Positions 41,980-57,118 of a stretch of DNA of 64,000 nucleotides are shown piece after piece. How positions within the stretch are numbered: position 1 is the stretch's first letter; the number at the start of each line of letters is the position of its first letter. This DNA comes from Eledone cirrhosa (Eukaryota), in NCBI GenBank assembly GCA_964016885.1, contig OZ024765.1, positions 14,508,001 to 14,572,000 of the forward strand, written 5' to 3'. Below the pieces are notes generated by a model that was not told the origin of the DNA, searched no databases, and saw only the letters and a list, made by a program, of their open reading frames with translations. Both the position numbers and the translations under genes were made by a program.

Positions 41980-42170
41980 ATAGGAACCAGTAAGACCCCG
42001 ACAGCTGAGCTCAAGCCGTTTCGACGGCTAATTCAGAATTAGCCGTCGAAACGGCTTGAGCTCAGCTGTCGGGGTCTTACTGGTTCCTATTACCCACTCT
42101 ACTACCTCAAGTATTGAGTACTTTGGTGCTTTATGGTCCACCTGGTTCCTTACCACATTTCCTTCGTTAT
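41980..42170. mobile_element. Palindromic element, family P, in (TA)n
   Basis: Perfect 55-bp arms at 41980-42034/42036-42090, plus an 80-bp unique tail. Homologues lie at 53598, 55946 and 56982. Confidence 0.9.
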
Positions 42171-42906
42171 ATATATATATATATATATAAATAATACATA
42201 TAATATATATGTATGTATATATATATATATATATATATATATATATATATATATATAATACATATAATATATTTGTATGTATATATATATATATATACAT
42301 ATAATATATTTGTATGTATATATATATATATATATAATAGATATAATATATTTGTATGTATATATATATATATATAATACACATAATATATATGTATATA
42401 TATATAAATATATATATATATATATAATATATATAATATATTTCTATGTATATATATATAAATATATATATATATATAATACATATAATATATTTCTATG
42501 TATATATATATATAAATATATATATATATATATATATATATATATATATATTACATATAATATATTCCTATGTGTATATATAAATATATATATATATATA
42601 TATATATATATAATAATATATATATAAATGGAATAGAATGAAACGAAATTTCATTTCTCACTCTTAGTGCGGCACTTACTTAAATGTAAGTATGTATGTA
42701 TACGTACATACATATATGTATACAGACGTACAGTAGCATGTATATATATACATACAGGCACACATATATATATATGCACGTATCAGTTTACCGAACATTT
42801 ATTATAATGCTCGGTTTGTTCGTTTGTAAACAAACAAACAGCCTGAATTACGCCGTACAGTGTTTAGGCAACCACGTCACCTTTTTGTTCAACACTGACA
42901 CAGGAA

Positions 42907-42947
42907 CGATGTACTAGTTTCAAGCTTATTAGCTATCGTCAGCACCG
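42907..42947 (-). ncRNA. Minimal type-I hammerhead motif (H3)
   Basis: Minus strand: CGGTG-CTGACGA-T-AGCT-AATA-AGCT-T-GAA-ACTAGT-A-CATCG. Stem I has 5 bp (one G-U), stem III is the palindrome ACTAGT and the triplet is GUA. Confidence 0.82.
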
Positions 42948-43022
42948 TATACCTTTCTGCCAGATGGTTGAACGTCCGAAAGTATATACTTTCCTTATGA
43001 AAATTAACGGCTGAGCAGCCTA

Positions 43023-43030
43023 ATTTGCAT
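43023..43030. promoter_or_regulatory. Octamer motif ATTTGCAT inside the H3 element
   Basis: Exact octamer about 76 nt upstream of the hammerhead in its sense orientation. Function is inferred only. Confidence 0.35.
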
Positions 43031-43789
43031 ATCGAGTGAGTTCAGTCGGCCAGTCGCACCGAAAACGATAAATGGAATGGAATGAAACGAAATTTCATTT
43101 CTCACTCTTAGTACGGCACTTACTTAAATGTAAGTATGTATGTATACGTACATACATATATGTATACAGACGTACAGTAGCATGTATATATATACATACA
43201 GGCACACATATATATATGCACGTATCAGTATATATATAGAATATATTGGTATGTACATGTGTATATATATATATATATATATATATTAATATATATATAT
43301 ATATATATATATAATATATATGTAGATGTATATGTTAATAAACACACACACACTTATATATATGTGTGTGTGTGTATATATATATATTAATACGCACACA
43401 TATATATATATATATATATGCACAAAACATCCACGCATACACATACACAAACTGTATATATATACAGATACATATAACTTCATATACGAACATGTCTTAA
43501 TGCATGCGAGCATATATTCACACACACATATATACATACATATACATATATGTATATATATATATATAACACACACATGTATACAGACATATACGAACAT
43601 ATACACACTCATATACACACATAAGTGGACGGTGCTGATAATATAGAGCGGAGAATGGGAATTCCATTGATACAATATATTCCAAAATGGCCGACGGTAA
43701 ATTTAGTGATATGCGACAAACAATGCTCCGATATATAACTCGTGTCCAGCTTTCTTCTCGCTGATAACGAGATGCTTTTAGATGGCTAA

Positions 43790-52944: not shown

Positions 52945-53597
52945 ATATATATATATATATATGTACATATATATGTATAAATATATATATATTTATGCAC
53001 AGACACACACACACACACACACACACACATATATATATATATATATATATATATATATATATATATATATATATATATATATATATATATATATATATGT
53101 ATGTATGCATGTGTGTTTGTGTATGTGTGCGTGTCAGAACATGTAGAGGCATCTATCAAGAAAGGAACATACCATTCAAAATAGTGGCTGGAAGTTAATA
53201 AATACAGCTTACCTATTCTACAGACACCTTGCCGTCTTTCAAAATGCAATGCTGTCTCGTCGTCTCACAGCACTGAAACACCTGAGACGATATATATATA
53301 TATATATATATATATATATATATATATATATATATATTTGCTTTTATCCTTCTATGTTGTTCACTTGTCCCCCTCGCTTTACGCGATTTACTGGTCCCAA
53401 TAACTTTTTTTAGTTATTGCTCGCACCAACCTGAGGAATCTGATTTTTAATGCGATGAAATACCAATGATGGTTGGAAAATCACTGACGAAGGACTATTT
53501 TTATCATATGTGAACCCATGTGCAATCCACGCAGTATTCTTCTTTCTTCTCATGTTTATATATATATATATATATATATATATATATATATATATAT

Positions 53598-53790
53598 ATA
53601 ACAGGAATTGTGGTAAGGAACCAGATGGACCATAACGCACGAGAGTACTCAATACTTAGGGTAGTAGAGAGGGAAATAGGAAAAATTATGACCACGATGG
53701 CAGAGCTCAAGCCGTTTCCACGGCTATTTCTGTCCAGAAATAGCCGTCGAAACGGCTTGAGCTCTGCCGCCGAGGTCATACGTTTTCTAT
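53598..53790. mobile_element. Family P palindromic element
   Basis: Arms at 53687-53732/53735-53780, plus a tail ATAACAGGAATTGTGGTAAGGAACCAG...GTACTCAATAC. Confidence 0.88.
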
Positions 53791-55945
53791 ATATATATAT
53801 ATATAAATATATATATATATATAAATATTATATATAAATATACATATATGTATGTATATATATATATATATATATATATATATATATATATATATATATA
53901 TGTATATATGTGAATATATATATATATATATATATATATATATATGAATATATATATATATATATATATATATATATATATATATGAATATATATATATA
54001 TATATATATATATATATATATATATATATATGAAATATATATATATATATATATATATATATATATATATATATGAATATATATATATATATATATATAT
54101 ATATATATATATATATATATATATATATATATATATATATATATATATCAATACGTAGTTACGAAAGCCACAACAATGCAGAGGGAAATCTCGAGGTAGG
54201 AAGTGAATGATAGATAGGAGAAACAGGAGAAAGTAAAAATTGAGAGAGACAAAGATGAAAACAAAACAAAGGTAGAAGGGTTACCGTAGTGGAGATATAT
54301 ATATATATACATAGGATATATATATATATTCTCTCTCTCTCTCTCTCTCTCTATATATATATATATGTATATATAACGATATACATTAAAGTATATGTAT
54401 GGATGTATTAATATATGATGATGATGATAATAATAATAATAATAATAATAATAATAATAATAATAAAACAATGAACTATTTTTAATGATGTATAGACACA
54501 CATACATATACACGTATATGTGTCTTTATCGTATATACATATACATACACACACACGCACTCAGACACACATATATACGAGATATGTGTATATACAAAGA
54601 CACGCACACATACGTATATATATATATATACATATATATATATATATATATACACATACATACATACGCACATTTCGATACACATATATATATACACAAT
54701 ATATATGTATATATACACACCCACATGTATTTATACACATACATATATATATATATATATATATATATATATATATATATATATATATATATATACATAT
54801 ATATATGTACATATACATACAGACACACACGTACGTATTTACACACACACACACATATATATATATATTTATACATATATTTATATATATGTATATATAT
54901 GTACATATATATATATATATGTGTGTACATATATATATATATGTGTACATATATATTTATATATATATAAATACATATATATATATACACACATACACAC
55001 ATATTTATATATATACATATACACACACATACACACATTTATATATATATATATACACACACATACACACATTTATATATATATATATATACACACACAT
55101 ACATATTTATATATATATATATATATATATATATATATATATATATATATATACATACATATATATATATATATATATATATATATATATATATATATAT
55201 ACATACATATATATATATATATATATATATATATATATATACATACATATATATATATATGTGTGTACATATATATATATGTGTACATATATATTTATAT
55301 ATATATAAATACATATATATATATACACACATACACACATATTTATATATATACATATACACACACATACACACATTTATATATATATATATACACACAC
55401 ATACACACATTTATATATATATATATATACACACACATACATATTTATATATATATATATATATATACATATATATATATATATATATATATATATATAT
55501 ATACATACATATATATATATATATATACATATATATATATATATATACATATATATATATATATATAACCACATAACTGAGTAAATGTACGTATGTACGT
55601 GAATGTCTAGAAACATCTCCTTTCCTCAGGCTTGTGGAAAGTGAATAATTCATTTCATCCTTATGAGGGCATAACCTCCACTGCGCCCTCCGTCGCTCCC
55701 TCCAACCACCACTACACCAGCATCACTACCACCAGCGCCACCATCACTAACACTATTGTCTCAACGAGTAATTCTACTAGCAAACACTACCACCCGCCTT
55801 GTAATCCTACCATCACATCGACACCACCATCGACATGAAGGCTATCATTAAATCCACGAACACTATGTGTGTGTTTACACACACACACATACACACACAC
55901 ACATTGTATATATATACATATATATATATATATATATACATATAT

Positions 55946-56143
55946 ATAACGAAGGAAATATGGTAAGGAACCAGGTGGACCATAACGCACCAAAGTACTT
56001 AATACTTAGGGTAGTAGAGTGGGTAATAGGAACGAGTAAGACCCCGACGGCTGAGCTCAAGCCGTTTCGATGGCTAATTCTGTCGGCAGAATTAGCCGTC
56101 GAAACGGCTTGAGCTCAGCCGTCGGGGTCTTACTTGTTCCTAT
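55946..56143. mobile_element. Family P palindromic element
   Basis: Arms at 56026-56082/56087-56143, plus an 80-bp tail. (TA)n lies on both sides. Confidence 0.9.
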
Positions 56144-56981
56144 ATATATATATATATATATATATATATATATATATATATATATATATATATATATATA
56201 TATATATATATATACATATCTCTCTCTCTCTGTATATATATATATATATATATATATATATATATATATATATATATATATACATACATATCTCTCTCTC
56301 TCTGTATATATATATATATATATATATGTATATATATATATATATATATATATATACATATATATACATATCTGTCTCTGTATATATATATATGTATATA
56401 TGTATATATATATATATATATATATATATGTATATATATATATATATACATATATATACATATCTGTCTCTGTATATATATATATGTATATATATATATA
56501 TATCCCTCTCTCTCTCTCTCTCTCTCTCTGTATATATATATATATATATATATATATATATATATATATATATAAATATATATATATATACACATATATA
56601 TATATATACATATACATACATATATATACATATATATATATATATATATATACATATATATATGTATATATATATATACATATATATATGTATATATATA
56701 TATACATATATATATATATACATATATATATATATACATATATATATATACATATATATATATATACATATATATATGTATATATATATATACATATATA
56801 TATACATATATATATGTATATATATATATACATATATATATATATACATATATATATATACATATATATATGTATATATATATATACATATATATATACA
56901 TATATATATATATACATATATATAAACATATATATATATATATATATATATATATATATATATATATATATATATATATAT

Positions 56982-57118
56982 CAGATAGGGTGGACCATAA
57001 CCCACCAGAGTACTTGATACTTGCTGCAGTAGATTATGTAATTTGAAGTGATTCAAGGCCGCCGACGGTTGACCTTCGTATCTAGCTGTTGAAACGACCG
57101 GAGCCCAGCCGTCGGCGT
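56982..57118. mobile_element. Old family P element
   Basis: GGTGGACCATAA...GTACTTGATACTT, then GCCGACGGTTG ... GAAACG..CAGCCGTCGGC. Confidence 0.7.

Follow-up and report, generated by a model that had tools for sequence, protein, structure and literature searches.

Insertions of Penelope-like elements (PLEs) carry an inverted, 5′-truncated copy, a tail of 30–40 bp on one side only and a bias towards (TA)n (PMC8557442), according to the portions of the papers drawn on here and below. Self-priming has been proposed for PLE palindromes (PMC3846280). Given AT-rich DNA, a purified PLE protein nicks each strand and extends both, starting at two RNA sites with the tail between them (PMC11167929). 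Minimal hammerheads are described 100–700 bp apart on opposite strands (PMC4209133). The origin of the inverted ends and of the tail is an open question in PLE biology (PMC8557442, PMC11167929). Here we describe family P, a lopsided, non-coding palindrome of ~190 bp found in a 64,000-nt stretch of contig OZ024765.1 (positions 14,508,001 to 14,572,000; hereafter the window, numbered from its first letter). Family P works like a PLE insertion and very probably has a PLE origin; it is likely a non-autonomous PLE derivative, representing the 3′ ends of a Penelope-like retrotransposon moved in trans.

All five places reported for family P in the initial annotation exist, as judged by sequence inspection and BLAST between copies: three young copies (41980, 53598 and 55946), one old copy (56982) and one fragment (47314). 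E-values range from 1e-55 to 1e-84 between young copies, from 1e-6 to 1e-11 for the old copy and from 2e-4 to 0.02 for the fragment. A young copy reads, in order, (TA)n, a tail of 77–79 nt, an arm of 53–57 bp, a centre of 1–4 nt, the mirror arm and (TA)n. Family P is two head-to-head copies of one ~136-nt unit, the last ~79 nt of which are present in one copy only. In copy 1, whose sense strand is the forward one, the tail-less arm (41980–42034, reverse strand) and the tail-bearing arm (42036–42090, forward) show 0 mismatches in 55 and flank a single A, and the 79-nt tail (42091–42169, forward) ends in (TA)n. Copy 2 lies the other way round, with a 77-nt tail (53599–53675) and tail-bearing arm (53676–53732) on the reverse strand and a tail-less arm on the forward strand (53733–53790) that begins (G)TC-CAG, the G being common to the other arm; its centre is TC, and its arms differ at 6 of 53 positions (53680–53732 against 53735–53787). 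Copy 3 has a 79-nt tail (55947–56025) and tail-bearing arm (56026–56082) on the reverse strand, followed on the forward strand by the centre TCGG and the tail-less arm (56083–56143), with 2 mismatches in 57 (56026–56082 against 56087–56143).

The ~80-bp tail and ~55-bp arms that had been ascribed to every place hold for the young copies but not for the two remaining ones. The old copy keeps a tail of only ~60 nt and, on the tail side, a decayed arm piece of ~36 nt cut inside the helix III loop described below (56980–57075 together, reverse strand); its tail-less arm (57076–57135, forward) belongs to a second subfamily, and its start resembles a loose end seen before 56093 in public sequencing runs. 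The fragment (47314–47355, forward), an arm piece of an older subfamily, has neither tail nor second arm. Centres differ between the young copies exactly as first described, and the centre appears to be newly made at insertion. The tails of the young copies differ from one another at 5–9 positions per 77–79 nt. As also first described, (TA)n flanks all four two-part copies; the window is rich in microsatellites, with perfect (TA)4+ runs making up 16% of it. A 45-codon open frame on the sense strand has no ATG and was taken as chance.

Three features of PLE insertions are present in family P: an inverted, 5′-truncated copy placed head to head, a tail at one end only and a microsatellite or AT-rich target, here (TA)n. 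The initial annotation had rightly named a Penelope reverse transcriptase (RT) among the possible partners.

To follow the family beyond the window, four public runs of the 18 listed (X1, X16, X5 and X6) were aligned to the copy 3 region, 55944–56145. Family P is an abundant non-coding repeat family: 16,453 of 16,517,967 contigs of X1 aligned, as did 23,996 of 12,467,656 raw reads of X16, a restriction-site-associated DNA (RAD) run with the same species label as X1. These counts are not copy numbers, X1 may be the source sample, and runs X7–X15, of small share, are left out of them. Two other organisms carry the family (40 of 8,254,286 contigs in X5 and 1 of 8,122,504 in X6), and none of the 18 runs listed is an RNA run with family P. 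The second subfamily is visible in loose ends and is similar to the old copy. Piles of X16 read ends at 56079 and 56090 both fall at AATT, a restriction-enzyme site, and were taken as restriction cuts rather than biology.

The two arms of a copy share their variants. Of 14 alignable site-by-copy pairs at polymorphic positions, 13 have the same state in both arms (copy 53598 at 56135 is not alignable and lies outside the 14), and the chance of such agreement, with the discordant pair left out and one draw per copy, is roughly 0.01; a computed value of 6e-5 assumes unlinked sites and is too small. The initial annotation had described these substitutions as copy-specific. That both arms carry them stands, but they are common family variants, present at 0.37, 0.38, 0.17, 0.10 and 0.32 of X1 contig depth at the five sites tested. 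The variants held in common by the two arms of a copy show that both derive from one template. After insertion the arms decay separately, and a change at 56071 is present in one arm only.

How the second arm arises can be read from the junctions between the halves in the public runs, for which 15 of 72 joints and 12 of 80 rows of in-between letters are listed; the 12 rows comprise ten X1 rows leading to 56087, one X16 repeat of one of these and one other joint. In nine of the 15 joints, a cut point between 55990 and 56032 in the tail-side half is linked to 56087, where the tail-less arm starts (a position forced by the alignment, since the reference copy 3 has an odd centre). GTC stands directly before the tail-less arm in all ten X1 rows among those listed. 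In eight of these ten, G or GT is common to both halves (G makes up 27% and GT 11% of the stretch), and two hold extra letters at the joint. The tail-bearing half, by comparison, is cut at many points, about ten distinct ones among the joints listed lying inside the tail, before any arm sequence. In the joint 56004>56087, supported by 26 raw reads from 4 starts with 59 letters on the shorter side, a complete tail-less arm is attached to a tail-only piece, and 56020>56087 is likewise supported by raw reads. Because the tail is cut at many points and the tail-less arm starts constantly at GTC, the joining of two cDNAs by microhomology is favoured over the copying of one arm from the other. We regard twin priming as the most likely mechanism, with two fixed start sites on a single template and joining by microhomology, and hold this view with reasonable confidence.

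Hammerhead cleavage, splicing at an acceptor (TTTAG) and Pol III initiation were also weighed as causes of the GTC stop, and none was adopted: the 30 upstream letters listed hold neither GAAA nor CUGANGA, all 10 junction rows retain the G, and no convincing promoter boxes were seen by eye.

The model of the initial annotation, in which a PLE derivative acquires its second arm by fold-back self-priming of a single cDNA, so that one arm is templated from the other, draws support from the variants shared by the arms, from the near-perfect palindromes with their small centres and from the proposal of such priming for PLE palindromes (PMC3846280). It is improbable here, however, given that GTC is kept on the tail-less side in every one of those ten rows and that the raw-read joints 56004>56087 and 56020>56087 place a complete tail-less arm on a piece without any arm sequence to be copied in cis. 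An arm cannot be templated by tail alone, so fold-back copying fails for such copies unless later deletions removed the arm; as the loss is one-sided and runs to a constant point, later deletions seem unlikely. The same asymmetry bears on a further alternative, in which the whole of a palindromic master is copied and its unstable hairpin later undergoes deletions that give the variable junctions. Palindromes are deletion-prone, and one type of centre, which lacks two letters at 56085, is frequent, with 48 contigs making up about half of the depth at that point. Slippage across a hairpin would be expected to take both arms; most of the losses listed affect one side and stop at the same GTC, and two junction rows hold extra letters. 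We consider this account somewhat less probable still than fold-back copying.

A non-autonomous Helentron (HINE), or another HUH rolling-circle element with asymmetric inverted repeats and a 3′ stem–loop, would place one repeat at the terminus and the other subterminally, as family P does, and the tail of family P holds a hairpin. HINE subterminal inverted repeats are 12–15 bp long and flank a body, and insertion is at TT (PMC4067079). The arms of family P, by contrast, are ~55 bp long and abut, with no repeats of 12–15 bp around a body; its flanks are (TA)n rather than TT and its centre varies, which makes a rolling-circle origin very unlikely. We give almost no credence to a TA-targeting miniature inverted-repeat transposable element (MITE) or foldback DNA transposon, which would match the short, non-coding, palindromic and abundant form and the TA flanks, since the two termini are unrelated beyond TA and so form no terminal inverted repeat (in agreement with the initial annotation that this is no ordinary MITE), a tail extends beyond one of the arms, and some copies lack an arm. 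A target site duplication, as expected of a MITE, would be masked by the (TA)n on either side.

Two further features of the unit point towards the PLEs. The tail contains a motif of a 4-bp stem, a 2-nt bulge, a second 4-bp stem and AC, located at 42096–42121 (forward) in copy 1, 53645–53670 in copy 2, 55995–56020 in copy 3 and 57010–57035 in the old copy. A descriptor of this motif matched 0 of 20,000 shuffles of the family P unit, or 11 of 20,000 with one mismatch allowed. Across the window, at ≤2 mismatches, it gave six matches: the four family P tails, the tail of the neighbouring element at 47087 and one unrelated site at 3224. Among the 40 of 78 variants listed, those within the motif fall in the bulge or loop, except for one change private to the reference copy. 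By eye, the motif is found with changes on both sides of its stems in four of six Hydra-clade PLE consensuses: Hydra-2_Amil, Hydra-2_Ajap and Hydra-1_Crog (one mismatch) have it at the 3′ end, and Hydra-1_Ajap has it twice at its 5′ start. The remaining two consensuses, whose ends lie no more than ~50 nt from the ribozyme, did not show it by eye. The clade of family P is probably Hydra-like.

Secondly, the family P sense strand holds GAAA, a 6-bp helix with a 7-nt loop and GUC, the form of the 3′ half of a type I hammerhead (42048–42070, forward, in copy 1, where helix III contains one G-U and the CUGANGA half is lacking; 56101–56123 in copy 3). Such a half arises by chance in 23 of 5,000 shuffles with 6 Watson–Crick pairs and in 102 of 5,000 when G-U is allowed. 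Its cut site would lie 20 and 99 nt from the two ends of the unit. The hairpin that the initial annotation had nested in each arm, AGCCGT-CGAA-ACGGCT, is present (−8.0 kcal/mol) and overlaps the same bases as the helix III-like alternative (−7.7 kcal/mol). For a cruciform or T-shaped function of HUH or parvovirus-like kind, we found no evidence. Rfam gave no ribozyme match and nothing at gathering score in 55946–56143, with only hairpin-shaped matches of microRNA type below it; ARAGORN reported 0 genes, so a tRNA-like head, as in a tRNA-derived short interspersed element (SINE), is absent.

In the mechanism that we propose, a GIY-YIG/RT protein would nick both strands of (TA)n after binding the RNA, for which the tail stem motif is a possible site. 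One nick would prime cDNA at the RNA 3′ end, which is the tail end, and the other would prime internally, ~79 nt upstream, at the CCTAT boundary. The internally primed cDNA would usually end at (A)GUCC, a fixed stop, and the tail-primed cDNA at any point; the two cDNA ends would then anneal by 1–3 nt of microhomology, followed by fill-in. Where both cDNAs reach the stop, a near-perfect palindrome would result. In our literature search, which covered few subscription papers, we found no twin-priming account of PLE inversions and no conserved PLE tail stem. The words "palindrom" and "hammerhead" are absent from the portion of the main text available to us of the Octopus vulgaris repeat annotation (PMC13282606), and family P may already be named in a repeat library.

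Several observations weigh against this reading. The tail, at 77–79 nt, exceeds the published 30–40. No autonomous partner was found, with no RT or GIY-YIG Pfam match in the 100 of 155 window open reading frame (ORF) pieces scanned; PLE membership is not proven, because no partner ORF has been linked. Exact-pattern scans of viral, metagenome and prokaryote collections gave no match to family P, as expected for an animal repeat. Copy 55946 at 56135 is the sole pair at which the arms disagree. At the junctions, six of the 15 joints listed land elsewhere than 56087, with 57 further joints in the total of 72, and the GTC stop is not absolute: each of the four runs has loose ends from copies that extend upstream past GTC, through ATTTAGTC, and on into AT-rich sequence. 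The hammerhead is incomplete, no CUGANGA being found within the 30 upstream letters obtained from the public runs, and the nested hairpin is as stable as the hammerhead-like helix III. Because the 5′ core is missing and a hairpin competes, we claim no ribozyme for family P. As for the tail motif, its descriptor was drawn up after the resemblance had been noticed, the comparison with the Hydra consensuses is one made by eye, and a similar motif occurs in one Naiad record. RNAalifold on five tails supports the upper stem alone, with one compensatory change, and plain alignment of family P tails to the 47087 tail is not significant (153 and 189 of 2,000 shuffles).

The layout recurs in the neighbourhood. 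A sister element at 47087–47254 (forward) combines a tail, which carries the tail motif (47123–47148, reverse), and an inverted arm with a complete type I hammerhead (47187–47237). The arrangement of tail, inverted arm and (TA)n is also found at 61956–62545, where, as at 47087–47254, the hammerhead passes the descriptor, and at 52394–52944. The elements at 61956–62545 and 32252–32529 have perfect 39-bp inverted ends, a ~56-nt one-sided tail and (TA)n flanks, with a hammerhead-like core at 62353; that at 52394–52944 is a 206-bp palindrome (2 mismatches) with a ~130-nt one-sided tail in (TA)n and a CTGAAGA core near its centre. A SINE-like family lies head to head with differing centres at 4095–4553, 40947–41341 and 50575–51026, and one of its ends forms a head-to-tail tandem array at 15082–15860. 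The recurrence of the layout in these neighbours, together with the head-to-head SINE-like copies, points to a general insertion process in the genome, not to a fold peculiar to family P, and the SINE-like family may be moved by the same machinery. Four other ends in the window that bear hammerheads gave no significant local alignment with family P.

Other features of the window were noted in passing. Minimal hammerheads with a palindromic helix III lie ~85–120 nt from a (TA)n-flanked end at 14824 (forward), 24949 (reverse), 4912 (reverse) and about 47570–47610 (reverse), that at 24949 passing the descriptor. At 42776–43184, a descriptor-positive hammerhead (42942, reverse) sits between direct repeats of ~115–150 bp (from 42627 and ~43071). 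Inverted repeats of 118 bp (3 mismatches) at 30291–30605, with a 79-nt spacer and TATAT at both ends, could be a true MITE. A C2H2 zinc-finger Pfam match (E 1.4e-05) is located at 6269–6439 (reverse) inside a repeated element that has a related copy near 48298–48662, and tandem arrays of repeat ends and microsatellite, with units of ~134 bp and 117 bp, occupy 25300–26460 and 26927–27512.

Family P offers many natural junctions within ~190 bp, which separate fold-back self-priming from the joining of two cDNAs and favour the latter. Its minimal RNA of ~136 nt, with a candidate signal, could serve in vitro experiments and the design of compact tools for RNA-templated insertion, and elements of this kind would easily be misfiled as MITEs. 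Octopus is reported to have an unusually high potential for double-stranded RNA (dsRNA) and hyper-editing (PMC5625713). If the host is an octopus, self-folding inserts could help to explain both. More tentatively, the tail motif might be an undescribed signal for recognition and initiation that PLEs with (TA)n targets share across phyla, insertion might require twin priming on a single short RNA whose 5′ end is defined, so that each insertion is a ready-made hairpin, and many short repeats of the genome, the SINE-like family included, might be moved likewise and form a main source of dsRNA; we hold this extended scheme to be possible, if doubtful.

Among known systems, non-LTR retrozymes resemble family P as short, non-autonomous, PLE-related hammerhead sequences, but they form head-to-tail arrays with a full ribozyme in each unit, whereas family P is head to head with half a ribozyme and does not belong with them on the portion consulted (bioRxiv 10.64898/2026.07.22.740005). 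With the Hydra-clade PLEs, including Hydra-1_Obim of Octopus, family P has in common the (TA)n target and, by eye, the stem–bulge–stem–AC motif of the tail (PMC8557442). A further likeness is the hammerhead 3′ half, of the form (C)GAA–long helix III–H, ~90–100 nt from the tail end (PMC8557442, File S2). Hydra elements possess a complete hammerhead and an RT–endonuclease ORF, unlike family P, which shows the 3′ half only (PMC8557442). The cut site of Hydra-2_Amil lies about 97 nt from the end (by eye), against 99 nt in family P, and comparison with the six Hydra consensuses gave no sequence match beyond the tail motif. The Octopus Naiad PLEs (Naiad_Obim and Naiad_Ovul) likewise target (TA)n and lack a canonical hammerhead, and they have in common with family P the 8-mer GTCGAAAC ~100 nt from the 3′ end. 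Their 3′ ends are otherwise unlike those of family P, which, by eye and by motif search, does not group with them.

In L1 twin priming, two nicks prime two cDNAs that are joined by microhomology, with the second primer at variable sites and a small overlap. Unlike L1 5′ inversions, family P has both starts fixed, and the arm is usually duplicated. The Poseidon element of Anolis, studied in vitro, is alike in its two RT starts bounding the tail, in the nicking and extension of both strands, in its AT-rich target and in initiation at a stem–loop (PMC11167929). Its starts lie close together inside the ORF, and a link to inverted insertions is absent from the portion examined of that report (PMC11167929). 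The closest likeness in layout is to PLE insertions with an inverted pseudo-long terminal repeat, which also have a head-to-head, 5′-truncated copy, a palindrome at the junction, a one-sided tail and a microsatellite target (PMC3846280, PMC8557442). Family P differs from these in having no ORF, a length of ~190 bp, a tail of ~79 nt instead of 30–40 and a nearly fixed start for one half (PMC3846280, PMC8557442), and its junctions fit two joined cDNAs better than the self-priming proposed for PLE insertions (PMC3846280).

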